From a virus, in the UHGV virus genome UHGV-0072288: DNA of 13,766 bases; one strand, 5' to 3'. The translations under genes and the position numbers were made by a program. Numbering within the stretch: the first letter of the stretch is position 1; the number at the start of each line of letters is the position of its first letter. Below are positions 1-12,583 of this stretch, piece after piece. Below the pieces are notes generated by a model. It had not been told where the DNA came from and made no database searches. It saw nothing but the letters and a program-made list of their open reading frames with translations.

Positions 1-42
1 TTTAGTACAGTACCCGTACTGTTTTCACGCTGTCAACAAAAA

Positions 43-61
43 ACGCGCCCGAAGGTGCGTT
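43..61 (-). terminator. Possible intrinsic terminator downstream of int (minus-strand transcript)
   Basis: Imperfect GC-rich hairpin ACGCGCC-CGAA-GGTGCGT at 43-60. An A6 run at 38-43 on the + strand gives a U-run after the stem on the minus-strand RNA. About 85 nt past the int stop. Stem has one mismatch on the minus-strand RNA. Confidence 0.3.
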
Positions 62-144
62 AATAATGCCTATCAAATAAGGCTCTCATTGATAAATCAA
101 TATGTTATGAGCGCCTTATTAACCCTAATACACCCTAAAATGCC

Positions 145-1138
145 CTAGTCGGTGGACATTATGTGGACACTCCCACGCATAGGGTTAAATCGTATGGCAT
201 CAGTCAGATAATCTGGGGCGAAGTGAGCATATGTCATTGTTTGCTCGATTGTTGTATGACCCAAAATACGCTGTAGCGTGATGATATTCCCGCCGTTGAT
301 CATGAAATGTGTTGCGAAGGTATGGCGTAAAACATGCAGTGCCTGACCTTTCGGCAAGTCTGGCTTAATCTTACGAAGAACATCGCGAACTCGCTCATAG
401 TTGGTATCGAACAATTTCCCCGATTTGCGTGTAAGGATGTAGTCCGCGATTTCCTTCGATATCGGAACAGTACGAGCTGGGCCGGTTTTGGTCTTAACAA
501 AGGTCACACGGTTACTTATCACGTTTTCAGCTTTAAGATTACTGGCTTCACCCCCATCGTGCTCCTGTATTCAGGCAAAGAACGACAACTCTGCGATCAT
601 CCCCTGTAAGGGCATTCAGCAAATGGTGGATCTCTTCTTCGGACAGAAATGACATTTCTGTGTTTTCCAGACGTAACTTCTTCACGGCGCGAAACGGGTT
701 TTCGTGATGAAATTCTTCCATATCTATCAGCAAACTGAACATGCTGGACATGGAACAGAAATCCCTGTTTACCGTGCCAGCAGATACTCCACTATGAAGT
801 CGTTCTGCACGATATTTCATCAGAAAGTTGCGGGTAAGCTCGTACACTCTGGGTTCCGCCATTTCTCGGTTGATTATTTCCAAACGCTTTTTATATGAGT
901 CACCATAGTTGTGATTCTTTCCATGGTAGCTCCACCATAAAGAAATTAACTCGGATACAAGCCTCCTGTCTGCGGGTTTATCCTGCCATTCTTTATCGTG
1001 AAAGTTTGTCAGTACATACCGCTCGTATGCCTGTGCTTCCGCCTTTCTGTCAAATTTGCGTCGAATCCTTCTTCCTGAGGTTCCGCGCGGTCTAACGTCC
1101 ACTTCAAAACGACCATCATCAAGCTTCTTAATCGACAT
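145..1138 (-). pseudogene. int: Tyrosine recombinase/integrase (P2 Int-like), reading frame broken by a +1 frameshift in a C5 run (551-555)
   Basis: Two adjacent minus-strand ORFs (548-1165 and 145-522) in different frames. N-terminal part MSIKKLDDGRFEV...LCLNTGARWG-stop; C-terminal part carries the catalytic tyrosine-recombinase region (HVLRHTFATHFMINGGNIITLQRILGHTTIEQTMTYAHFAPDYL). Removing one C from 551-555 gives a contiguous ~331-aa ORF (...GARWGEASNLKAENVISNRVTF...). Start set at ATG 1138 (GGAGGG 7 nt upstream) rather than the tool's 1165. Confidence 0.75.
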
Positions 1139-1204
1139 AGCGAAGCCCTCCGATGTATGAATCATTATGTAAATTTTGCGCTAACGCATAGAAAAACCAG
1201 ATGT

Positions 1205-1504
1205 TTAGCCAATTTTCCGGGTGGAACGGGATGATGTTATGTTGTCTTGCCCATCAGGGGAGAGAGACGGGGACACCTGCCCCGCAATTGGTGCCGTCTT
1301 ATCTGTCATTAACCAGAGTGTATATTTTTCAAACATATGTACCTCTATAACACTTTCTAAGACTTCTGCACGAGCTGGCTGATGGCCAGTTTCGTACTTT
1401 TTTATTGTTCCAAGAGCTACCCCAGTAAGCTCTGAAAAATCTTTTTGAGTTAACCCTTCAGCTTTCCGGATCTGCCGGAGTTTCTCCGCATAATTTCTTG
1501 ACAT
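1205..1504 (-). CDS. C: Immunity repressor, P2 C-like (99 aa, HTH)
   Basis: 99-aa ORF with helix-turn-helix (LTQKDFSELTGVALGTIKKYETG) and C-terminal KYTLWLMT...APIAGQ pattern resembling P2 C (recalled from memory). Lies upstream of int on the same strand and divergent from a cox-like gene, as in P2. Confidence 0.75.
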   Translation of the reverse strand: MSRNYAEKLRQIRKAEGLTQKDFSELTGVALGTIKKYETGHQPARAEVLESVIEVHMFEKYTLWLMTDKTAPIAGQVSPSLSPDGQDNITSSRSTRKIG

Positions 1505-1612
1505 GGTTCTTGTATCGCAACTATTATTGGTTCTTACAAAAGAACCTTGACAAAAGAACCCTAGAACGACTTAAAGCGCCCTAGGAACCCAAACTAACGA
1601 AGGATACCACAG
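1505..1612. promoter_or_regulatory. Divergent Pc/Pe-type promoter-operator region between C and cox
   Basis: -35-like TTGACA at 1547-1552. Inverted repeat GGTTCTTACAAAAGAACC at 1529-1546. Repeated hexamer AGAACC/GGTTCT at 1505-1510, 1529-1534, 1541-1546, 1555-1560, 1584-1589. SD GAAGGA at 1599-1604, 8 nt before the cox ATG. Confidence 0.5.
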
Positions 1613-1894
1613 ATGAAGGAACCAGCAGAAAAGGCGCTTTCAGAGTTGGTGACCCCTGAGCTTTTTGCCGAATATATAGGCAAAACGCCTGCTGCAATTC
1701 GCAAAATGGCCACGGCTGGAAAACTGCCGGTAATCCGCATGAAAGACCCTCTAAATCCATCAAAAAAAGGTGGGGAAATCTATATCCATCGGGGGGAATG
1801 GGATGCTTATGCCATTCATTTGGCTCAAATTGCCCCGCCTGAATGGCATGACTGGAAGAACCGTTTATTCACGAAAGATAAAAGTGCTCGTTAG
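1613..1894 (+). CDS. cox: Cox-like small DNA-binding protein (excision/lysogeny-lytic switch)
   Basis: 93-aa ORF divergent from the repressor gene with a good SD. Position and size match P2 Cox / 186 Apl. Sequence similarity not verified. Confidence 0.55.
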   Translation: MKEPAEKALSELVTPELFAEYIGKTPAAIRKMATAGKLPVIRMKDPLNPSKKGGEIYIHRGEWDAYAIHLAQIAPPEWHDWKNRLFTKDKSAR

Positions 1895-1920
1895 TAAACT
1901 AAATATTATTGGGGATTATC

Positions 1921-2256
1921 ATGAAGACTAAATATGCCACGCTGATTCGTAGTCTGTTGCAAAACTATCACGCTCAGGCAAAAACCATTGATAAAGAAAC
2001 ATTCTCTGTACATAGCGATGGCTTGCAGTTAATGGAATTAAACATTCAGCTTGCAAAATGCCTTGAGGGTATAACCTCCACTGCTCGCTTTAATAATGAT
2101 AGTGATGATTTTGAAGAACTGCACAAAATCACGCTTATGGTATTTGGCGGAAATATACCAACTGAAAATAACATTTCCGGTCTTATGTCGCTGGCTACCA
2201 CAGCGTTAAAAAGTAATAACTCGCATCTTAAATCTGTTGCAGCTTCCCAACGTTAA
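1921..2256 (+). CDS. Hypothetical protein (AT-rich early-region cargo)
   Basis: ATG at 1921 preceded by GGGGA (1911-1915); the tool's 1909 start is TTG. 111 aa. Lower GC than flanking phage genes. No recognisable motif. Confidence 0.5.
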   Translation: MKTKYATLIRSLLQNYHAQAKTIDKETFSVHSDGLQLMELNIQLAKCLEGITSTARFNNDSDDFEELHKITLMVFGGNIPTENNISGLMSLATTALKSNNSHLKSVAASQR

Positions 2257-2265
2257 GGAACCGAT

Positions 2266-2835
2266 ATGAAACATTTAATGATTGACCTTGAAACAATGGA
2301 TAATAAACCGACTTCTGCGATTGCTTCTATCGGTGCTGTATTCTTTGACCCTGAAACTGGCGAAATGGGTGAACAGTTTTATCAACGTGTCAGCCTGGGC
2401 AGCTGTGTAGGCCACGGTCTCACTATGGGGTCAGAAACCGTATTATGGTGGATGCGTCAGGATGCCGAAGCGCGTAGCGAGCTGCTTAATGACGATTGTC
2501 TGGACTTGCCTCTGACGTTAGCTAATCTGGAAGCTTTTATTACTGAGCATTCTGACCCATCTAAAGTACAGGTATGGGGGAATAGTGCAGCGTTCGACAA
2601 TGTTATTTTACGTAATGCATCAGAGAAATGCGGGTTTGCCGATCCACTTTGGTACTACTGGAATGACCGTGATGTAAGAACGGTTGTTGAACTGTCAAAA
2701 ACACTTGGGCTGAATGTTCGTAATATTATTAAGTTTGATGGTGTTAAACATCACGCTTTATATGATGCCATTCATCAGGCTAAAGTTGTTTCTTATGTCT
2801 GGATGTATCTTGTAAAAATAGCCAGTGTGAAATAA
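2266..2835 (+). CDS. DEDDh-family 3'-5' exonuclease (DnaQ/epsilon-like)
   Basis: 189-aa ORF with Exo I motif MIDLETM (D-x-E), Exo II-like WGNSAAFDNVIL and Exo III HHALYDAIHQA (H-x4-D). SD AAGGA 6 nt upstream of ATG. Confidence 0.8.
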   Translation: MKHLMIDLETMDNKPTSAIASIGAVFFDPETGEMGEQFYQRVSLGSCVGHGLTMGSETVLWWMRQDAEARSELLNDDCLDLPLTLANLEAFITEHSDPSKVQVWGNSAAFDNVILRNASEKCGFADPLWYYWNDRDVRTVVELSKTLGLNVRNIIKFDGVKHHALYDAIHQAKVVSYVWMYLVKIASVK

Positions 2836-2837
2836 CG

Positions 2838-3056
2838 ATGCTTACAGTGACCTCTCATGCAAGTGAAAGTGTCATTCACAAGGCATTTTCAGTGCTGACA
2901 GAATATTACAACGGCAAAAAGGTATATCAGGTTATTAAGCCAAAACATTATTTCTCTGTTCATGTTTCTTATCGCTGGCGATTACTGAGTAAGGATAAGG
3001 GCAGAAGCTGGGAACTAATGACACATGAGCGATATAACAAGCAGTACAGAATATAG
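2838..3056 (+). CDS. Hypothetical small protein (72 aa)
   Basis: ATG 2 nt after the exonuclease stop, co-directional, ends just before the primase-helicase gene. No recognisable motif. Confidence 0.4.
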   Translation: MLTVTSHASESVIHKAFSVLTEYYNGKKVYQVIKPKHYFSVHVSYRWRLLSKDKGRSWELMTHERYNKQYRI

Positions 3057-3095
3057 TTTTTGCCTTTTACCCATTATTTCACATCTGGATTATTT

Positions 3096-5753
3096 ATGAA
3101 CGAAACGATACAACAGGACGTTGTGCGCCGTCTTGTTCGGGACTTTGAATTTAAAGAGCGGGATAAGTATTTGCAGCAGGGCGTTTGCCCTGCCTGTCGT
3201 AAGCGCGAATTATTTACCAGCATAGAAAAGCCCTGGATTCTGAAATGTGGCCGTGAAAATAACTGCGCACATCAGATTGTCGTGAAAGAGCTGTATCCGG
3301 ATATCTTTGAAGACTGGTCAAAACGTTACCAGACCACAGAAGATAACCCCCATGCAGTAGCTGAGGCGTATCTGCGCGAGGCCAGAGGGCTGGAGACTGA
3401 GCCATTAAAAGGCTGTTTTACCCAGGGTGCATTCGTGAAAGATGGCATGGGGTCGGCAACGGTCAGATTTTCGCTGTCATGCGGTGCAACATGGGAGCGC
3501 ATCATTGACCAGCCGCAGCGCTTCGGTAAGCAGAAAGCCAACATCAGGGGAAGCTATGTCGGTCACTGGTGGGTTCCTCCCTTTATCAACCTGCAGGAAG
3601 TGAACGAAATCTGGATCACTGAGGGAATCTTCAACGCGCTGAGTCTGTGCCAGGTAGGGTTACCTGCAGTTGCCACACTGAGCAGTAACAACTATCCGCT
3701 GGCCGCACTGGATACGCTGGCCAAAGAACTGGGTGAAAAACCACGTCCACGTCTTGTATGGGCGTTTGACGGCGATAAAGCCGGCACAAAGCACACACTG
3801 GCGTTCGCTGCCCGTAGTGATGCTGCAGGATGGAAAACTCGTGCCGCGCAGCCGGTGAAATCATCGGCATCGCTGGACTGGAATGACCTGTTGTTACGTA
3901 ACCGGTTCAGTAAGTCGGACATTAAAAATTATCGCTACTATGGCGATCTCCTTCTGGCAAAAAGCCCGACTGAGAAAGCGCTGCTCATGCATCAGCATAA
4001 CGAGTGGCACTCGTTCTACTTTGAGCATAACTCCCGCATGTACTGGTTTGAGCTGGATCTGGACAGGTATATGCGAGCCTATGAGCGCATCACCAATACC
4101 GGTACCGAAGTGGTGATGGAGTGGGAGGCCAAAGAACGGGCGGTTAAAGAGTCAGGCGGCGTGACCGAAATAGCTAACTGCTGGCTGACGCCGCTTTACT
4201 TTCAGCGGTCTGAACCTACGGACGAGTCCTGGTATTACGTGAAAGTCAGTATGCCTAACCGGCCAGCCGTGAAAGATACTTTCACGGCTAATCAGCTCAC
4301 CAGCTCCGCCGAGTTCAAAAAGCGTCTGCTGCACATCGCCAAAGGGGCGGTGTACACAGGCAGCACCAAACAGCTGGATAAGTTCATCCAGATGCGCCTC
4401 CCTGAAATCAAAGAGGTAAAGACGCAGAATTTCATCGGCTATAACAAGGATTATGCCGCCTGGTTGTTTAACCGCGTGGCCGTTTGCGATGGCCGGCTGT
4501 ATGAGATGAACGACGAGGATTACTTCGAAATCAACAGTGCCAGCGTTAAGAGCCTGAGCCTCACGCCGGCGCTGGATCTGAATCCGAAGCTGAACGAGTT
4601 TACTACGGGTTGGGTAGACGATATCTGGACGGCATTTGGTGAAAAAGGGTATGTGGCGCTGGCGTTCTGGCTGGGGTCGCTGTTTGCCGAACAAATCCGC
4701 GAGCGTGACAAGTCATTTCCGTTTCTGGAAATCGTGGGCGAGCCGGGGACAGGTAAATCCACGCTGATAGAATTTCTCTGGAAGCTCGCCGGCCGTGAGG
4801 AATACGAAGGGTTTGACCCATCTAAATCTACCGCCGCCGCGCGTGGCCGTAACTTCGCCCAGGTCGGTAATCTGCCGGTTGTGCTGATTGAGGGCGACCG
4901 TACTACCGATAACGCCAAGCAACGCGCTTTTGACTGGGACGAGCTGAAATCACTGTATAACGGTCGTGCCTCCCGCGCCGTGGGTATCAAATCGAACAAT
5001 AACGAGACGTATGAGCCGCCGTTCAGGGGAAGTATTGTGATAGCGCAAAATGCCGACACAGACGGCAGCAAGGCGTTTCTGGAGCGTATCATCCACATCT
5101 ATACCGACAAGCGCGGCCAGTCCATTCAGACGCGCCACGCTGCAGAACGACTTGAACAACTCCCCGTTAGCCAGGTATCCGGATTCACATTACTGGCCAC
5201 CATGCGCGAAAAAGAAATCATGCAGACGTTCGGCAGGGGGTACGAGCGAGCTAGGAATGAGCTGGAGTCTAATAGCAGTATTCGCCATATCCGTATTGCA
5301 AAGAATCACGCGCAGCTTGTGGGCTTGCTGGAGGCGCTTGCACTTGTTGTACCGGTGCCGGTTGAACGTATAGAAAAAACGCGTGAAGCCATCACCGCGC
5401 TGGCCGTTGAACGTTGTCAGGCACTTAAAAAGGATCATCCTCTGGTGCAGGAGTTCTGGGAGCTGTTTGATTACTTGGATGAACTGGCACCTTATGGCAT
5501 CAATCATTCATCAGATGAAAATGAAATCGCGGTTAATTTCAATCACATGGAAGAGGTCGCCGCAGCACACCGGCAGCGTATTCCGTTCACGTTAACGGAA
5601 ATTAAAAAGCTGCTTAAAAACGGCAATGAGCGCCGGTTTATCAGACAAAGCACCACGCGCAGCGCGGTAAGTGAGCGCCATAATCGTGGTAAAGGGGATA
5701 TGCAACGGATGCCGGAAACATTCCGCTGCTGGATATTTGGCCGGGAAAAGTAA
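3096..5753 (+). CDS. Replication primase-helicase (zinc-ribbon + TOPRIM primase + SF3/D5-type helicase), P4 alpha-like architecture
   Basis: N-terminal Cys4 zinc ribbon (CPAC...CGRENNC). TOPRIM motifs (WITEGIFNAL; VWAFDGDKAG). C-terminal P-loop NTPase with Walker A GEPGTGKST, Walker B PVVLIEGD and motif C IVIAQNAD. The tool starts at TTG 3060; ATG 3096 (MNETIQQ) preferred. Confidence 0.85.
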   Translation: MNETIQQDVVRRLVRDFEFKERDKYLQQGVCPACRKRELFTSIEKPWILKCGRENNCAHQIVVKELYPDIFEDWSKRYQTTEDNPHAVAEAYLREARGLETEPLKGCFTQGAFVKDGMGSATVRFSLSCGATWERIIDQPQRFGKQKANIRGSYVGHWWVPPFINLQEVNEIWITEGIFNALSLCQVGLPAVATLSSNNYPLAALDTLAKELGEKPRPRLVWAFDGDKAGTKHTLAFAARSDAAGWKTRAAQPVKSSASLDWNDLLLRNRFSKSDIKNYRYYGDLLLAKSPTEKALLMHQHNEWHSFYFEHNSRMYWFELDLDRYMRAYERITNTGTEVVMEWEAKERAVKESGGVTEIANCWLTPLYFQRSEPTDESWYYVKVSMPNRPAVKDTFTANQLTSSAEFKKRLLHIAKGAVYTGSTKQLDKFIQMRLPEIKEVKTQNFIGYNKDYAAWLFNRVAVCDGRLYEMNDEDYFEINSASVKSLSLTPALDLNPKLNEFTTGWVDDIWTAFGEKGYVALAFWLGSLFAEQIRERDKSFPFLEIVGEPGTGKSTLIEFLWKLAGREEYEGFDPSKSTAAARGRNFAQVGNLPVVLIEGDRTTDNAKQRAFDWDELKSLYNGRASRAVGIKSNNNETYEPPFRGSIVIAQNADTDGSKAFLERIIHIYTDKRGQSIQTRHAAERLEQLPVSQVSGFTLLATMREKEIMQTFGRGYERARNELESNSSIRHIRIAKNHAQLVGLLEALALVVPVPVERIEKTREAITALAVERCQALKKDHPLVQEFWELFDYLDELAPYGINHSSDENEIAVNFNHMEEVAAAHRQRIPFTLTEIKKLLKNGNERRFIRQSTTRSAVSERHNRGKGDMQRMPETFRCWIFGREK

Positions 5754-5766
5754 CGGTTCACTAGTG

Positions 5767-5831
5767 CCTAACTTTATTGTTAGGGGAAGGAGCGAACATT
5801 GAAGCAATAGGGGCGTTATCTTTATTGCTTC
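5767..5831. terminator. Two hairpins between convergent primase-helicase and glycosyltransferase genes (candidate terminators)
   Basis: Hairpin CCTAAC-TTTATT-GTTAGG at 5767-5784. Hairpin GAAGCAATA-(13 nt)-TATTGCTTC at 5801-5831 followed by a T-rich stretch on the + strand. The second overlaps the stop of the minus-strand gene. Confidence 0.4.
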
Positions 5832-6541
5832 ATTCTTATTTTAAAGTTCTTTAATTTACCGTACAGAGTATCCCGCAGGGAAAACGAAGGAACCCAATCA
5901 AAACCAGTACGCCAGGGGCGTGGACTGCCATGAAAGCAAACAACCGCCACATTATCAGGGACTTTCCCTGTCGCAGCCTCAGAGGCTAAATTTGCATTGA
6001 AGCCAATCATCGAGGGGGTGGCGATGTCACATTTATAACTAACAATTGAGCCAGGAATGATATCCTGCCATAGGGCTGGTTTTATGATGCTACCGAGAAA
6101 TCCCTGATCACCCCATTTGTCTTCAGTCTGACAATTGCGCATAATTTTCTCAGGATCAATAATGAATTGTTCCCAAATCGTCTTTTTAATCGACGCCGGA
6201 ATCATCATTATTGATGAGTTTACTCTTGAGGCATGGTTAAACTCCCGAAGCATTGTAAATTTCTTCGCACCTTCGAAAATATGAATATCTCCCGTGACCA
6301 CAACATCTACGTCAAAATAGAGTAAATCTTGGTCTCCAAGGACTGGGTGATTAGGATTAAATAGTTCAATTTTAGACCACCATCCCGGCCAGTTATAAAG
6401 CAAAGGGGTTGTGTTAACTCCAGGAATATTATCTGCATCGGTTAAACATATAGATGGAATATCTTTGAACTGACGATGAAGCCATTGGGCGTGTTTAGGG
6501 GTAAACTCTTTACTACATTTAAGAACTGAGACTATTAACAT
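5822..6541 (-). CDS. GT-A fold nucleotide-sugar glycosyltransferase-like protein (GT8-like motifs), hotspot cargo
   Basis: 239-aa ORF with strong SD (GGGAGG 6 nt before ATG at 6541). DxD motif after a hydrophobic strand (LLYFDVDVVV). C-terminal FHGSPRPW resembling the GT8 H-x-G-x-x-K/R-P-W motif. Noticeably AT-rich. Confidence 0.6.
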   Translation of the reverse strand: MLIVSVLKCSKEFTPKHAQWLHRQFKDIPSICLTDADNIPGVNTTPLLYNWPGWWSKIELFNPNHPVLGDQDLLYFDVDVVVTGDIHIFEGAKKFTMLREFNHASRVNSSIMMIPASIKKTIWEQFIIDPEKIMRNCQTEDKWGDQGFLGSIIKPALWQDIIPGSIVSYKCDIATPSMIGFNANLASEAATGKVPDNVAVVCFHGSPRPWRTGFDWVPSFSLRDTLYGKLKNFKIRMKQ

Positions 6542-6600
6542 AAGATGCCTCCCAAAATTTGGAAAGATAATATCATGTTTAGGAGGGGGGGACTATTAAT
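6542..6600 (-). promoter_or_regulatory. Putative promoter/5' region of the glycosyltransferase gene, containing a homopolymer tract
   Basis: SD GGGAGG (complement of 6548-6553). -10-like TATTAT (complement of 6568-6573). G7 run on + strand at 6585-6591 (C7 in the gene's sense) where the spacer/-35 would lie. No convincing -35. Confidence 0.3.
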
Positions 6601-6655
6601 CACTTGGTCATTCATCGACGTTGATAGATGGGAATCTGTTACATCTCAGAAAATA

Positions 6656-6680
6656 AAAGCACCGGTAGCGGTGCTTTTTT
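6656..6680. terminator. Bidirectional rho-independent terminator
   Basis: Stem GCACCG/CGGTGC (6659-6664 / 6669-6674), extendable with A-T pairs, loop GTAG. T6 at 6675-6680 on the + strand and AAAATAAAA at 6650-6658 (U-run for the minus-strand transcript). Immediately follows the stop of the Ogr-like gene. Confidence 0.65.
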
Positions 6681-7010
6681 CTATGCGGCAGCAGTGCCGT
6701 CCTGACTCAGAAACTTTAACATCAGCTGCTTTTGCTGGATATCAAGGCTGTTACAGATAGTGGCGATCAACGCATCGCTGGATTTGGCGCTGGGGCTGAT
6801 GGTATGTGAGAATGTCATATTCATCACAAAAGTGTGACCACATTCAACATCGGTACACGCGCAATATAAATCCGACAGTTCCTTGTGTTTTCGGGCTGTT
6901 TTTTTGATAACAGCCCTTGCCTCACATACCGGACAGTAAACCTTCATTACCCGCATATCCATCGCTCCGGAAGTTGGAAAACGATGATATTTTAGCCTTT
7001 TTGCGAACAT
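6681..7010 (-). CDS. ogr: Ogr/Delta-family zinc-finger protein (late-gene transcription activator family)
   Basis: CPVC-x22-CACTDVEC-GHTFV pattern matching P2 Ogr (CPLC...CQNVNCSATFI, from memory). Start ATG at 7010 overlaps the portal stop (TAATG) with SD GGAAGGTG upstream. Alternative internal starts at 6956/6947 would give an Ogr-sized ~88-91 aa protein. Confidence 0.65.
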   Translation of the reverse strand: MFAKRLKYHRFPTSGAMDMRVMKVYCPVCEARAVIKKTARKHKELSDLYCACTDVECGHTFVMNMTFSHTISPSAKSSDALIATICNSLDIQQKQLMLKFLSQDGTAAA

Positions 7011-8028
7011 TAATCACCTTCCAGCTCACTGTCTTTCAGGAAATTAAGGTACAGGTGGGGCGGTACATCACTTTCCTGTTCCACTGCGGCGGTAAACATG
7101 CGCTGAATGGGCAAAATTTCTGCTTTGCGGTAGGTTTTGGACGCTTTCTCAACATCTCCCATTACTGCGCCGTTCGTCGGGATAATCCCCGCCAGTCCTG
7201 CCGGGAATCGATGCGCGGTCAGTACGTCCTGGGCGCTGATGCTCTTGATGTTCTGAAACTCATCTTTGGCGCTGATATCCCCAATCGGGATAAATTTGAT
7301 GCCGTCCGGATCGCCTTTGGGGATGTTCACAAACATGGTGCTGAAGTTCCCGATCCCCTTTGACTGCTCCAGCTTCTGAATAATTTCTTCTTCCACTTCA
7401 TCAGTCATATTTGGGTCGTTACAGTAGATCATGCCACCTGTGTGTCCGCCGTTATGGTAGTAACGCCGACGAAAAATTGTTGCCTCACCGTTAAGCAGGG
7501 CAGAATGGATACCGCTGATATAATCCGGCAGACCATAAATCGCCTGTTGCGGATCGTACTGCCTGAGAAAAATAATATCTTCAGGCGGATAAATCATCGG
7601 TTCACCCTGCTGCAGTACCACAAACTCCCCGGTCTTACGCTGGCGGGTGAAGTGGAAGCCGGGGGTTACGGTCCCCCCCCCCCCCCCCAGCCGTTACGCA
7701 CTTTCAGAATGGCCACATCACCGAAGGTCAGCCAGTCGAACACGGCTGCACCAAGCTGTTCATGCGTCAGTCCGCCGTCTTTATAGTTTGCCGTCACCAT
7801 ATTGCGACGGGCATACAGCACACCGCCGTGCTGCGCGTTCAGGTTCACCAGTTGCGCCAGCGCCAGCCGGTCAATCGGGAGCGTCCAGTGTTCCGCTTCA
7901 TTGTCATACCAGACGTCTGTGTAGTTTGTGCCGGTCGTCAGAATGGGTTCCGGTTTACCCAGGGTAATAAGGCTCATATGGCGCGGCTTGCTGGCGGTGC
8001 GGCGTTCCCTGTATTTCCGTTTTTTCAT
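7010..8028 (-). pseudogene. Q: Portal protein (P2 gpQ-like), frame interrupted by a 16-nt homopolymer
   Basis: Two minus-strand ORFs (7666-8028 and 7010-7621) together give ~340 aa, matching the ~344-aa P2 portal. The upstream frame reads ...LKVRNGWGGGGGP-stop through the G16 tract. The downstream frame is open back through the tract (...GGGGGTVTPGFHFTRQRKTGEFVVLQQGEPM...). ATGA overlap with the terminase stop at 8025-8028. Confidence 0.8.
7673..7688. repeat. Homopolymeric tract C16 (+ strand) = G16 in the portal coding sense
   Basis: Direct count: 16 consecutive C at 7673-7688. Tract lengths of 14 or 17 would join the two portal reading frames; the observed 16 does not. Confidence 0.95.
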
Positions 8029-9158
8029 GCTGCTTTCCCTAAGTTACCCCAGCGTGATTTTCGCTGGTTTTCAAAGTTTAATGGCTCGTTGTCAATGGCA
8101 TGGGCGATAGCCCAGAAACTGTCTGCGTGTCCTGTTTCTGCTGTGCGATCGGCGACGAAAGTCATTGCGTTGCCGCTGGCCGTGGACGTACGGCGGATGG
8201 TCATAAAGCTGGCGGCGATTTCGGTCTTCTCCTTATCCCATTCCACGCGGCCGTCTTCGATAACGTCGATCATCTTCATCACCAGACGATTTTTGGTCTC
8301 GACGCCGTAGCGGATCGCCACTGCCTGACGCATGGCAAAGTGCTGAACGTCTTCAAAGACACCGCTACCCAGTCCAGTGATATCAATGCCGATGTAGGTC
8401 ATGTTGTACTGGCCAAACAGCTTCTTAATCTGTGCCGCCTGCCACTTCCAGTTCATCCCCTGCCAGTGGAATACACGCAGTACCCGAAATTTTTCGCCGG
8501 CCACTATCGGCGGCGCGATGATCACGAAGGTGGAGGTGTCTCCGCTGCGAGCCGGGTCATAACCCGCCCACACTTCACGGTTGCCGAACGGCCGGGGCAG
8601 GTTTTCGTCATGATCCTCCCAGAAATACCAGGTTGCACCAATCTGGCGGCTTTTCAGGATGTTCCTGATTTGCTGATGAAGATTAGCGCGAAGGTGTTTC
8701 TGGTAACCGAAAAGGTGCTCCAGCGCGAACCGGTCAAAATCTTCCTGTGTCAGTCCGCTGATGTCGTTCTTTTTGTACTTGCCACGTTTCCGGGGCTTTT
8801 CGTCGCCACCGGACTGACGCGCCGGCGCATCATTTTCACTGTGTTTAATTTCTGCCAGCTTTTCCTGATGCTTATTGTGCTGTGCACGTAGTTTCACCAG
8901 GTGAGAAACGAGACTGTCCAGCTCCCGCAGCTCCAGCTCCGATTTCCCTTCACGTAATGTCAGTGACTGAATGCGACGGTTTAATGCATCTTCGGTGGAT
9001 TCATGACTGAGTAATTCCGCCCAGCAATATTTCTCCGCCCAGTAATAGACAATGCGTCTGTTAGGCAGATTAAGTTCGCTGGCAATTTCCTGCGGGGTAT
9101 AGCGTTTTAAATAAAGCGCCCGCGCAACGCCTTTTAATTCTTCTGAATATTTAGCCAT
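8025..9158 (-). CDS. P: Terminase large subunit (P2 gpP-like), apparently shortened: N-terminal HTH plus C-terminal nuclease, ATPase core largely missing
   Basis: N-terminal HTH (YTPQEIASELNLPNRRIVYYW). Deviant Walker-A-like KSRQIGAT followed almost immediately by nuclease-type motifs (AGYDPARSGDTSTFVI; YIGIDITGLGSG; HADSFWAIAHA). 378-382 aa versus ~590 aa recalled for P2 gpP. Start uncertain (GTG 9173 or ATG 9158, neither with a good SD). Confidence 0.65.
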   Translation of the reverse strand: MAKYSEELKGVARALYLKRYTPQEIASELNLPNRRIVYYWAEKYCWAELLSHESTEDALNRRIQSLTLREGKSELELRELDSLVSHLVKLRAQHNKHQEKLAEIKHSENDAPARQSGGDEKPRKRGKYKKNDISGLTQEDFDRFALEHLFGYQKHLRANLHQQIRNILKSRQIGATWYFWEDHDENLPRPFGNREVWAGYDPARSGDTSTFVIIAPPIVAGEKFRVLRVFHWQGMNWKWQAAQIKKLFGQYNMTYIGIDITGLGSGVFEDVQHFAMRQAVAIRYGVETKNRLVMKMIDVIEDGRVEWDKEKTEIAASFMTIRRTSTASGNAMTFVADRTAETGHADSFWAIAHAIDNEPLNFENQRKSRWGNLGKAA

Positions 9159-9301
9159 GCACACATTATGCACGGGCGTTTGTATATTAAATCCCGCTTT
9201 ATTTCTGATGTGTTCGGCTAATAGCCTATATCCGAAATGAAGTGAATGCGGCGGTTAATTTTATTGGCGATACTGAAAACCGCAGCATGAACGGAGGCAA
9301 T
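9159..9301. promoter_or_regulatory. Divergent late-promoter region between terminase (P) and scaffold (O) genes
   Basis: Position equals the P2 divergent P/O late-promoter interval. Strong SD GGAGG at 9294-9298 before the O ATG. No TGT-N12-ACA Ogr-type dyad found by eye. Confidence 0.35.
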
Positions 9302-10141
9302 ATGTCAGGTTCACAACTGGCAACAAACTGGATTTGTATCGCCACTGCGGGTGAAACGGTTGATAAGCGATTTATTGAAGAACAATGGTTGCTTGATGCC
9401 GCTGAATTATATGACCCCTCTTTGTATACCGCGCTGTTATGGCCGGAACATTCCCGTAATTTCGGGAATATGGGGGAGGTGCTGGAAGTAAAAGCCGAGC
9501 GGGATGATGAAGGTATTCTTCGTTTATATGCCCGCCTCTGTCCGGCGATTTCATTGCTACAGGCAAATGCAGACGGTCAGCTTTTATTTTTATCACCGGA
9601 GTTTACACCGGACGGCAATTTCAGAAATACCGGGAAAACCTATCTTGAGGGACTGGCCATTACTGACAGTCCGGCCGGGGTAAGCACCACACGGTTACGT
9701 TTCAGCCGCACCAGGGGAAAACGCATCGGACCATACAAGCCGCTGGCGTTTGATGAAGTCAGGGAATTTAAAAAGGAAAAGGGAATGTCAAAGACAGCGA
9801 AAAAGGGCTGGCGCCATTTTTTCAGTATCGAAGAACCGGAGCAGACCCCGGAGCAGGAACCTTCACAGTCTGATGCCTTACAGGCGCTGGCTGAAGCGCT
9901 GGATGCCATTGATAAGCGCGTATCTGCTATTGAAACCCGTCTGGGTGAGGCGGAAGAAGCGGTATCTGATGTGCAGGACGATGTGGACACCGTGAAGGAA
10001 GTAGTGGACACCGAAGATTTTGCGCGTCTGGTGGGGAACCTGCCGGAGCTGGTGAAAAACTTCAGCAAGCTGAATAACAAAGTTACTCAACTGCCGGACA
10101 AGAAATTCAGCAAGGGCAAAAAAGGCTTCAATTTCCTGTAA
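9302..10141 (+). CDS. O: Capsid scaffolding protein (P2 gpO-like)
   Basis: 279 aa from ATG 9302 with GGAGG SD; the tool's 9242 start is GTG. N-terminal region resembles gpO and the C-terminal half is acidic/coiled-coil (EEAVSDVQDDVDTVKEVVDTEDF). Sits between terminase and major capsid genes. Confidence 0.75.
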   Translation: MSGSQLATNWICIATAGETVDKRFIEEQWLLDAAELYDPSLYTALLWPEHSRNFGNMGEVLEVKAERDDEGILRLYARLCPAISLLQANADGQLLFLSPEFTPDGNFRNTGKTYLEGLAITDSPAGVSTTRLRFSRTRGKRIGPYKPLAFDEVREFKKEKGMSKTAKKGWRHFFSIEEPEQTPEQEPSQSDALQALAEALDAIDKRVSAIETRLGEAEEAVSDVQDDVDTVKEVVDTEDFARLVGNLPELVKNFSKLNNKVTQLPDKKFSKGKKGFNFL

Positions 10142-10175: not shown

Positions 10176-11204
10176 ATGCAATTAAATGCGAAAGCCCGTG
10201 AGTTTCTGCTTCAGTATCACACCGGGCTGCGTGAATCCTACGGGGCGACCGACAGCGAACGCTGGTTTGCACTCACCGACCCCAAAGAAACCCAGCTGCG
10301 CAATGCGCTGATGGAGCAGTCTGATTTCCTGAATCTGATCACCGTTGCCGATGTCGATCAGCTGCAGGGGCAGGTGGTTCCGGTTGGCAGCTCTGGCCTG
10401 TATACCGGGCGTGTACTGGATGGCCGCTTCCGTAAGAAAGTGGGCGTGAGTGGTAATGATTACAGTCTGGTCGAGACCGACTCATGCGCCGCACTCACCT
10501 GGCAGTTGCTTTCTGTCTGGGCGAACGCCGGCGATGAAAACGAGTTTTTCCAGCGTGTTCAGGAGTTCACCAATCAGGCGTTTGCGCTGGATATGCTGCG
10601 TATCGGCTTTAACGGTACCAAAGTGGCCGAGACCACGAACGCGGAAACCAACCCGAACGGCGAGGATGTGAACAAGGGCTGGCATCAGATCGTCAAAGAG
10701 TGGAAGGACGGCCAGCAGATCATCACTGATGCGGTGGTGCTTGACGGTGACGGGAAAGGCGATTACGTGTCGCTGGATGCAATGGCCTCCGACCTTATCA
10801 ACGCCAAAATCCCGGCACAGTACCGTAATGATCCACGCCTGGTGGTTCTTGTCGGCGCTGATCTGGTCGCGGCGGAGTCGTTCCGTCTGTATCAGAAAGC
10901 AGACAAACCCACGGAGAAGATCGCCGCGCAACTGCTGTCTGACAGCATCGCCGGCCGCACGGCTTACGTACCGCCGTTTATGCCAGGCAAACGCATGATT
11001 GTTACGACACTGCCAAACCTGCACATCTACACCCAGCGCGGCACGCGTCAGCGTAAAGCGGAGTTTGTGGAAGACCGTAAACAGTACGAAAACAAATACC
11101 TGCGTAACGAAGGTTATGCGGTTGAGTATCCGGAACTGTACGCCGCGTTTGATGAAAGTGCGGTAGCTATCGGGGCACCTGTCGCGCCTCCGGCAGGCGA
11201 GTAA
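10176..11204 (+). CDS. N: Major capsid protein (P2 gpN-like)
   Basis: 342-aa ORF directly downstream of the scaffold gene with SD AAGGA. Size and position match P2 gpN (~357 aa). Confidence 0.75.
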   Translation: MQLNAKAREFLLQYHTGLRESYGATDSERWFALTDPKETQLRNALMEQSDFLNLITVADVDQLQGQVVPVGSSGLYTGRVLDGRFRKKVGVSGNDYSLVETDSCAALTWQLLSVWANAGDENEFFQRVQEFTNQAFALDMLRIGFNGTKVAETTNAETNPNGEDVNKGWHQIVKEWKDGQQIITDAVVLDGDGKGDYVSLDAMASDLINAKIPAQYRNDPRLVVLVGADLVAAESFRLYQKADKPTEKIAAQLLSDSIAGRTAYVPPFMPGKRMIVTTLPNLHIYTQRGTRQRKAEFVEDRKQYENKYLRNEGYAVEYPELYAAFDESAVAIGAPVAPPAGE

Positions 11205-11214
11205 GGGGGATTTA

Positions 11215-12252
11215 ATGCAACTGTCACCGGCACAGCGCCACAGCGCACGAATTGAAGCGGAGCGGTTACTGCGACAGCAGCAGTCTCTGGACACGGAAAC
11301 CAGCCTGCATATTCAGATTGTCGCGCTGGAGAAAGATGTCGCCGCAGCTGCAGCGATTGAAAGCCGCGCTGAGCGAATGGAATTTAAGCGTGATGTGCTG
11401 TTACCGCGCTGGATGCCAACCGCGCAAGCCGGGACGGTTATCCAGACAGAGCGCATTAACGGTCGCGTGTATGAGCTGGCCACCAGTGAGGATGTAGTGA
11501 TCGCTTCCGGTACGGCCTGCGCATTACTGCCGGTAAAAGCCACCGGCACCGGGGGCGCATATAACCTTGCGCCGGGATATTACCGCATTCTGCCGGTTGC
11601 CGTTGACGGTATCAGCCACGTGGCCAGCGAAGAAAACTGGCTGACCGTACCGGGCGCGGATGAAGAAAGTGATGACGAGCTGCGCGAACGCTGCCGCAAT
11701 CAGTTCAATCTGGTGGGGAATTACCACACTGACGCCGTTTACCGGTCGATGATTGCCGGCGTTGCAGGGCTGAGTATTGACCGGATTTTCTTTGAACATG
11801 AAGCGCCGAGGGGACCCGGTACCGCCAACGCGTATCTGTTGCTGGACAGCGGGGTGGCTTCTTCGCCGTTCGTGGATGCCGTCAATGACTATATCAACAC
11901 GCAGGGGCATCACGGCCACGGTGATGATATGCAGTGCTATCCCATGCCGGAAACGCTTCATGATCTGTCCGTCACAGTTTATGTCAAAAATCTGGCCAAT
12001 TTCAGCGATGAGGACAGGAAAACCCTGAAGGACGGGGTGGAGAACATGATCCGCTGTGCTTTTCGTGAGAATGCTGATTATGACGTCAGGAAGACGTGGC
12101 CATATTCGCGTTTTTCCTTTTCTCAGCTGGGGCGGGAGATCCACAGGACATTTGCTCAGACGGAATCACTGTCTTTTTCACTGGGTGATATCACCAGCGA
12201 ACTGAGTGTTCCACGCCTGAAATCGCTTGCGGTTGTTGTTGAAAATGAGTGA
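11215..12252 (+). CDS. Chimeric ORF: terminase small/endonuclease subunit (gpM-like) N-terminus (~73 aa) fused to a baseplate protein J-like body
   Basis: N-terminus MQLSPAQRH...KRDVLLPRWMP matches the gpM start (MTSPAQRH...KRELLPFWLPW, from memory). The remainder (...ESDDELRERCRNQF...GVASSPFVDAVNDYI...) resembles P2 gpJ (...ESDTDYRLRIQQAF...GVASEDLLAVVRNAL...). Implies an in-frame deletion of the M-to-J interval. Confidence 0.5.
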   Translation: MQLSPAQRHSARIEAERLLRQQQSLDTETSLHIQIVALEKDVAAAAAIESRAERMEFKRDVLLPRWMPTAQAGTVIQTERINGRVYELATSEDVVIASGTACALLPVKATGTGGAYNLAPGYYRILPVAVDGISHVASEENWLTVPGADEESDDELRERCRNQFNLVGNYHTDAVYRSMIAGVAGLSIDRIFFEHEAPRGPGTANAYLLLDSGVASSPFVDAVNDYINTQGHHGHGDDMQCYPMPETLHDLSVTVYVKNLANFSDEDRKTLKDGVENMIRCAFRENADYDVRKTWPYSRFSFSQLGREIHRTFAQTESLSFSLGDITSELSVPRLKSLAVVVENE

Positions 12253-12583
12253 GTTCCTGAAAAAGCTGGCCGGGATGGTGCTTCCTTCCTGGATGAACAA
12301 AGGCGAGCCGGCGAAGCTGCTGAAAACGGCGCGGCGGTTCTGGACTGAGGTTTACGGCTGGGTTACGTGGCCAGTGAATCAGTTCGATCCGCTGACGTGT
12401 ACGCCGGCATTACTGAACCTGCTGGCGTATGACCGCGATATACCGACCTGCTTTTGCGCTGGTTTACCGGTTATGTTGAACGTTCACAACCAGCTGAAAA
12501 CGGTTATCAGCGTCTGTTCATTCGTGAGCTGGCCGGTGTTTTTGAAAGGATGTGGCCATGTTCATTTCAGCACCCGACATTAA
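12245..12583 (+). CDS. Tail protein I-like (gpI / YmfQ family), C-terminal part doubtful
   Basis: ATG 12245 overlaps the upstream stop (ATGAGTGA). N-terminal ~65 aa (...VNQFDPLTCTPALLNLLAYDRDI) resembles gpI (...WNPDTCPANLLPWLAWAFSVDRWD). After ~12440 the frame is Cys-rich and atypical, while frame 2 opens at 12433 and stays open to the window end. Confidence 0.45.
   Translation: MSEFLKKLAGMVLPSWMNKGEPAKLLKTARRFWTEVYGWVTWPVNQFDPLTCTPALLNLLAYDRDIPTCFCAGLPVMLNVHNQLKTVISVCSFVSWPVFLKGCGHVHFSTRH

Follow-up and report, generated by a model that had tools for sequence, protein, structure and literature searches.

The large-terminase gene of an Escherichia coli prophage remnant has lost most of its ATPase domain through a single in-frame deletion. 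We found it in UHGV-0072288, a viral DNA of 13,766 nucleotides analysed at its full length and referred to here as the window. Our main reading, to which we give a probability of about 0.85, is that the gene is a pseudogene created by a recent, lineage-specific deletion in a decaying, immobilised prophage, and that no working short terminase is involved. The event is an ordinary, recent, pseudogenising prophage deletion, of a kind that is already known.

A large terminase without its ATPase domain

The terminase gene and its parts are as follows.

8025..9158, minus strand: truncated large terminase (gpP-like TerL), 377 aa plus stop
8970..9134, minus strand: Terminase_5 domain (gpP-like HTH), kept, residues 9-63 of the 377-aa form
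8631..8654, minus strand: Walker-A-like motif KSRQIGAT, residues 169-176
8621..8623: deletion junction, a 3-bp microhomology (AGA) between codons F179 and W180
8088..8564, minus strand: Terminase_6C RNase H-like nuclease domain, complete, residues 199-357

The minus-strand ORF at 8025..9173 encodes 382 aa from a GTG, in line with the ~380 aa given in an earlier note on this DNA. Alignment to homologues places the matching start at the ATG at 9156-9158, which yields 377 aa. The same note had described an N-terminal HTH and a deviant Walker-A-like KSRQIGAT. Pfam recognises the former as PF06056 (E = 2.2e-11, 44 bits with a cut-off of 20.3; aa 14-68 of the 382-aa form), and alignment locates the latter, which is unchanged in six of six aligned TerL proteins and is the sole ATPase motif remaining in the window TerL. 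Nuclease motifs had been noted within ~30 residues of it, and the first of them, GYDPA, indeed begins at residue 199, 23 residues past KSRQIGAT; GYDPA, IGIDITG and GHADS are all intact. The nuclease domain matches PF17289 over profile positions 2-154 of 155 (E = 7.6e-37; aa 204-362 of the 382-aa form). A PDB sequence search matched this domain alone, and in sequence it resembles the 5M1F family of TerL nuclease structures from Thermus phage.

The search for terminase ATPase and nuclease models proposed in the earlier note recovered Terminase_5 and Terminase_6C, whereas the Terminase_6N ATPase domain (PF03237), which scores 182 bits in the intact allele, had no Pfam match in the window TerL. 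Terminase_6N spans residues 166-386 in intact relatives, and its first 14 residues alone survive here. NCBIfam and PADLOC gave no match for the terminase or for a 239-aa cargo ORF.

Neighbouring genes have the order of a P2-family head module.

7010..8028, minus strand: portal gene, its start overlapping the terminase stop (ATGA)
7649..7682: assembly artefact within the portal gene, a run of 17 C with clustered substitutions
9302..10141, plus strand: gpO-like capsid scaffold gene, divergent from the terminase
10176..11204, plus strand: P2-family major capsid gene, intact (Pfam)

The portal adjoins the terminase downstream, and the gpO scaffold, gpN capsid and gpM small-terminase genes are divergent from it, gpM being itself shortened in the window by a second deletion. 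Its domains and these neighbours identify the gene at 8025..9158 as the large-terminase gene of a P2-family head module. The late-promoter region between terminase and gpO scaffold is 100% identical to that of intact copies.

Save for one 33-nt patch, the window is identical to an ENA metagenome scaffold (ERZ28565595, sample SAMEA2579949, 14,675 bp), the source being a short-read metagenome assembly. At the site of the 7649-7682 patch the sister scaffold has ~40 N, and because of this N run we rejected the apparent portal frameshift as biology; it reflects a scaffold gap only.

A single 648-bp deletion

The window is a remnant of an Evevirus-like prophage (P2 family, Peduoviridae) that lies between pheL and raiA in E. 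coli, and it is 99.8% identical to the prophage at that locus. Among 5,426 complete E. coli genomes, 12 carry the intact prophage there, at 99.9-100% identity. Genomes without it match just the first 63-64 bases of the window, a segment that includes one attachment site.

40..55: attL core AAAACGCGCCCGAAGG, repeated outside the window at attR beside raiA in intact copies

DNA alignment to copies in which the gene is intact (PK5, NT1F10 and HZ13) reveals a single gap of 648 bp, equal to 216 codons and in frame. The window aligns as 1-8623 and from 8621 onward, the 3 bp AGA being common to both flanks. The missing block corresponds to positions 20624-21271 of the NT1F10 locus (L006), that is, 645 bp plus one copy of AGA. 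The reference reads CCCAGA^TATCCGG at one end of the deletion and TTGAGA^AATACC at the other, the caret marking the break, and the junction in the window, read directly, is CCTCCCAGA^AATACCAGG, within the junction-spanning sequence CCTCCCAGAAATACCAGG.

At the protein level, the intact 593-aa TerL of NT1F10 accounts for the whole of the window TerL: its residues 1-179 are followed directly by its residues 396-593, and both parts are 100% identical. Pairwise and multiple alignments that took in the intact prophage allele (593 aa), the TerL of ESSI2_ev239 (595 aa), Wphi gpP, the phage 186 P homologue and a Klebsiella Peduoviridae TerL agree on one internal gap, which opens just past the Walker-A-like motif and closes shortly ahead of the nuclease domain. 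The in-frame internal deletion of ~200 codons suggested in the earlier note is therefore real, with an exact size of 216 codons from both DNA and protein, and the alignment to P2-type gpP and 186 homologues recommended there returned the same single internal gap in every comparison. The deleted residues 180-395 include LYCDE (position 253) and FSTPS (position 285), which we take, from the general terminase literature, to be the Walker B type motif and the C-motif. Also missing are the remaining parts of the ATPase fold and the linker that leads to the nuclease domain.

The closest intact relatives share the setting of the window gene. The terminases of E. coli NT1F10 and PK5 (WP_064670487.1/WP_032292414.1, 593 aa) occupy the same pheL-raiA locus and have the same neighbours, with a downstream portal of overlapping start and a divergent gpO scaffold; relative to NT1F10, residues 180-395 (648 bp) are missing from the window allele. 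Escherichia phage ESSI2_ev239 (Evevirus ev239, NC_049392), a coliphage isolated from infant faeces (PMC10910852), has ~87% DNA identity to the window over the head module and the same portal-terminase-scaffold-capsid order. Its TerL (YP_009877469.1) is 89-97% identical over the kept parts and, unlike the window TerL, has a full Terminase_6N ATPase domain. More distantly, Wphi gpP, the phage 186 P homologue and phiCTX P are colinear with the window TerL at ~38-42% identity. P2 gpP-type terminases share with it the Terminase_5 HTH, the KSRQIGAT loop and the nuclease motifs, but they are 589-590 aa long with a complete ATPase domain, whereas the window TerL has its 216-residue gap.

Homologues and rarity of the allele

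The 377-aa protein stands apart from its homologues. In a collection of 5.8 billion proteins, the 119 best homologues are 590-618 aa long and all have PF06056, PF03237 and PF17289; the query is the lone 377-aa entry and the lone entry without PF03237 among those best hits. The relatives examined, these 119 proteins and the 407 phage records described next, are about 590 aa long with all three domains, which agrees with the ~590 aa given in the earlier note for P2-type large terminases. Among phage records, 494 match the query, 407 of them over at least 80% of its length. The latter match in two pieces, and the 49 listed rows span ~1.7-1.8 kb, not ~1.1 kb. Colinear, functional gpP homologues of similar size, which would have spoken against a deletion, were sought in both sets, and none was found among the 494 phage records or the 119 best protein hits.

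Seven listed phage records (six Klebsiella, with one Salmonella and one Escherichia among them) gave one-piece matches over residues 135-368 that seemed colinear across the junction. The one that we checked, in a 587-aa Klebsiella phage protein, proved to be a spurious BLAST extension.

The lengths and domains of homologues rule out a natural short terminase. A short-form or split enzyme with its ATPase encoded elsewhere in the element is extremely improbable: the open ORF is the one point in its favour, and against it all homologues are single chains of ~590 aa, the flanks of the deletion are identical to the full-length allele, and the window has neither another Terminase_6N-like ORF nor DNA matching the missing 648 bp.

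The truncated allele is a singleton, present on one metagenome scaffold. Its junction is absent from the 5,426 complete E. coli genomes; a 401-nt junction probe was covered in 15 genomes, in all 15 as two pieces spanning 1,049 bp. Two contigs came up in a metagenome scan for the sequence left of the junction, and this deletion is absent from both. The exact 377-aa protein is recorded on two ENA metagenome contigs only, with the sample identified for one.

Other lesions and other copies of the prophage

The terminase is one of several damaged genes in the window.

145..1138, minus strand: prophage integrase, with a frameshift from one additional C at 551 (C5 vs C4)
11215..12252, plus strand: fusion ORF joining the gpM N-terminus (~71 codons) to the C-terminal part of baseplate J
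12437..12444: third deletion junction, with ~3.95 kb lost at microhomology GATAT

The fusion ORF arose when 8,216 bp were deleted, leaving a junction at 11426-11427 (AA); this deletion takes the gpM C-terminus and the head-completion, tail sheath and tube, lysis and tape-measure genes. The ~3.95-kb deletion, in the tail-fibre region, runs from a gpI-like tail gene to the baseplate hub/spike gene. Given the integrase frameshift and these two larger deletions, the element is dead whatever the state of its terminase. It has the marks of a defective prophage: an intact prophage exists at the same attachment site, and essential excision, morphogenesis and lysis genes are lost.

At least eight other copies of this prophage are damaged in other ways, by deletions, IS insertions and integrase lesions. 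A single deletion of 14 kb is found in PK5 and CUPF12, and YPE10 has two deletions, while PSJ-12 and 23CRST024 have four deletions and an integrase frameshift unlike that of the window. E89 combines an IS100 in the integrase with a 21-kb deletion, HZ13 an ISKpn26-associated deletion with a stop codon in the integrase, and BY63 and BY68 have an IS1-associated deletion. Three more remnants, L014, L016 and L018, came from a metagenome contig and IMG/VR. Private SNPs and differing integrase lesions make these lineages independent, and the variety of their lesions indicates that decay of the prophage is ongoing.

The window shares with enterobacterial cryptic prophages the loss of integrase function, the deletion of structural and lysis genes and the presence of fused gene remnants. 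The coexistence of intact and degraded copies of one prophage within a species belongs to the general picture given in a published account (PMC7744054). No qualitative difference separates the window prophage from such elements; what is unusual is that its breakpoints recur between lineages.

Breakpoints shared between lineages

We mapped 18 short-homology deletions (36 endpoints) from eight independent remnant lineages on a composite intact reference. Seven endpoint pairs are identical to the nucleotide, against ~0.1 expected, and the recurrent sites lie at reference positions 16255, 20623, 24075, 25444, 32304, 37256 and 39339. The first 11 events had already yielded four coincidences against 0.07 expected, a count that none of 20,000 random placements reached. 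At position 20623 two deletions meet: the terminase deletion of the window has its left end there, and a portal-terminase deletion of PSJ-12 its right end. A recent common ancestor of the window and PSJ-12 with an insertion at the common breakpoint was considered and found unsupported, since the two integrase frameshifts are not the same and SNPs private to each copy are present. In three coincidences the two lineages complement each other, the segment missing from one being exactly the segment that the other keeps; with the retained and lost parts reciprocal, common ancestry is excluded for these.

Shared breakpoints also bear on whether the terminase deletion might be an artefact that arose when the metagenome contig was assembled or scaffolded, the true genome having an intact terminase. 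The source is a short-read metagenome scaffold, the N run and poly-C patch in the portal gene lie ~1 kb away, and the junction occurs in no independent genome. Yet a 3-bp microhomology is too short a repeat to mislead a k-mer assembler, both contig versions carry the junction, and the 8.2-kb and 3.95-kb deletions, with the same junction type on the same contig, exceed scaffolding slips. Moreover, breakpoints of the contig match others to the nucleotide at 20623 (PSJ-12), 24075 (L014) and 37256 (PK5), and misassembly would not recreate breakpoints found in finished genomes and other assemblies. We consider an artefact unlikely.

The breakpoints have some sequence in common. TA, a rare dinucleotide, occurs within 13 of the 18 microhomologies, its frequency in the prophage being 4.2%; the TA rule was framed on the first 11 events and held in five of the seven later ones. 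Each of the seven recurrent sites has the form (T/A)A^(N)CC, with TA(N)CC at its centre. The best enumerated motif, TAYCNR, was derived post hoc and is found at 12 of 19 sites with P ~1e-7, a value that is only marginal after correction for ~3e5 motifs. Hairpins at breakpoints follow no general trend: of the recurrent sites, two have strong structure, and two others rank with the least structured.

Three candidate agents were examined and set aside. Integrase recombination at secondary att sites would involve the att core AAAACGCGCCCGAAGG, which is unlike the breakpoints; a GTAC-type restriction site is present at some endpoints only; and Rpn nucleases reportedly lack sequence specificity. A fourth candidate is gyrase, whose cleavage motif, as published, is a degenerate 130-bp pattern; quinolone scission prefers G.

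It is possible, although we hold it to be doubtful, that the terminase deletion came out of a process of sequence-directed breakage and rejoining by which this prophage is being eroded.

Origin and function of the truncated protein

According to our main reading, that of a pseudogene, the 648 bp between two AGA triplets were lost, probably by short-homology illegitimate recombination through either replication slippage or end-joining after a break, and the frame was kept by chance (1 in 3). In the predicted product residue 179, three past the Walker-A-like loop, is fused to residue 396, where the nuclease domain starts. This product comprises the HTH and the RNase H-like nuclease, without Walker B, catalytic carboxylate, C-motif, lid and linker.

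Mutational work on T4 gp17 has established that even conservative changes of Walker B or of the catalytic carboxylate abolish packaging, that the interdomain hinge is essential for translocation, and that portal-contacting residues sit near this hinge (PMC9958956). By analogy, the truncated TerL, having lost Walker B and its carboxylate together with C-motif, lid and linker, would be able neither to hydrolyse ATP nor to translocate DNA, and packaging would be lost. The HTH and nuclease domains could still fold.

Isolated TerL nuclease domains are active in vitro, and we considered whether the protein is kept as useful, for example as a domesticated nuclease, or as a dominant-negative subunit that interferes with packaging by related phages when these superinfect the host. 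Frame, start, divergent late-promoter region, Ogr-like activator gene and full nuclease domain are all intact, and TerL nuclease domains have been crystallised in isolation (PDB 5M1F family). We nevertheless judge such a role very unlikely: the allele is a singleton, diverged relatives of the same architecture were not found in our searches, the time depth is too small for selection to appear, and an in-frame result has a one-in-three chance in any case. Other lineages, moreover, have lost other parts of the terminase: PSJ-12 is missing its nuclease domain, and YPE10 most of the gene. As the deletion is recent and its flanks are 100% identical to intact alleles, conservation is silent on selection for the truncated TerL. 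For the pseudogene that we favour, we infer both the mechanism of deletion and the absence of a new function.

Implications

An open, well-scoring 'terminase large subunit' ORF can be without its ATPase, which calls for caution among annotators. The deletion adds one further route by which a prophage loses its packaging motor. If the breakage is indeed sequence-directed, its cause would be sought not in random slippage but in a nuclease, topoisomerase or transposase that attacks preferred sites in the prophage, or in strongly sequence-biased end-joining in E. coli. The mechanism of erosion would be open to direct study in a naturally replicated system, with one prophage, one locus and many independent remnants. 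Should prophage decay in E. coli use a limited set of TA(N)CC-centred breakpoints, its erosion would not be purely random.

Recurrent deletion breakpoints

Deletion breakpoints of the window (junctions 8621-8623, 11426-11427 and 12437-12444) and of loci L002, L003, L010, L012, L014, L016 and L018 were placed on a composite intact reference (L006+L005). Independent lineages of the prophage proved to share breakpoints to the nucleotide: seven coincidences occur among 36 endpoints, for about 0.1 expected, and three of the seven are complementary. The sequence (T/A)A|(N)CC is present at every recurrent site, TA is found in 13 of the 18 deletion microhomologies, and three of the window's six deletion endpoints fall at shared sites.

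One recurrent breakpoint, 16255, lies 10 bp from a hairpin in the primase coding region:

L006 (intact prophage locus, E. coli NT1F10) 16262-16290; window ~4262-4290: hairpin inside the primase gene

The hairpin is perfect, with an 11-bp stem (AGCCGTGAAAG ATA CTTTCACGGCT), and its local folding stability ranks in the top 3%.

Chimeric ORFs and an apparent split of the portal gene

The larger deletions in the window gave rise to two chimeric ORFs:

11215-12252: small-terminase N-terminus joined to baseplate J (Pfam Phage_term_smal and Baseplate_J both matched)
12227-12583: gpI-like N-terminus joined to baseplate hub/spike gene sequence

In the E. coli PK5 copy (L002), a 590-aa ORF at 13824-15596 is labelled 'P2 family phage major capsid protein' in RefSeq. 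The ORF is in fact a fusion created by deletion, in which a capsid N-terminus (~77 aa) precedes the C-terminal portion of the baseplate hub/spike gene product.

At window 7649-7682 the portal ORF is split by 17 consecutive C, accompanied by a cluster of substitutions and indels. A mutation was rejected here because the sister metagenome scaffold (L004), elsewhere identical to the window, has about 40 N at this position; the patch represents either a gap in the scaffold or an artefact of gap filling.

Other genes

Three further genes of the window are:

2266-2835, plus strand: Rv2179c-like 3'-5' exonuclease, adjoining the ParE-like gene
2838-3056, plus strand: ParE-like toxin domain protein, 72 aa (PF24732, E = 8e-17)
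5822-6541, minus strand: 239-aa ORF between primase and an Ogr-like gene

No obvious antitoxin partner for the ParE-like protein was found among the called genes. As ParE toxins poison gyrase, the break-prone behaviour of the prophage could possibly be tied to this candidate toxin.

The 239-aa ORF had no match in Pfam, NCBIfam or PADLOC; it matches PHROG 1962, annotated 'glycosyltransferase' in the moron category. Homology to diverged relatives (L013, L015, L022, L027, L028) stops exactly around it (reference ~17737-18654), which places it in a cargo-exchange hot spot.

Integrase inactivation

The integrase of the window is frameshifted by one additional C in a run of C (C5 vs C4):

145-1138, minus strand: integrase, frameshift at 551

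Separate events have disabled the gene in five or more lineages: this +C in the window, +T in PSJ-12, a stop in HZ13, IS1 in BY63 and IS100 in E89 (the last four being other copies of the prophage), which suggests that loss of excision preceded or accompanied erosion of the prophage.
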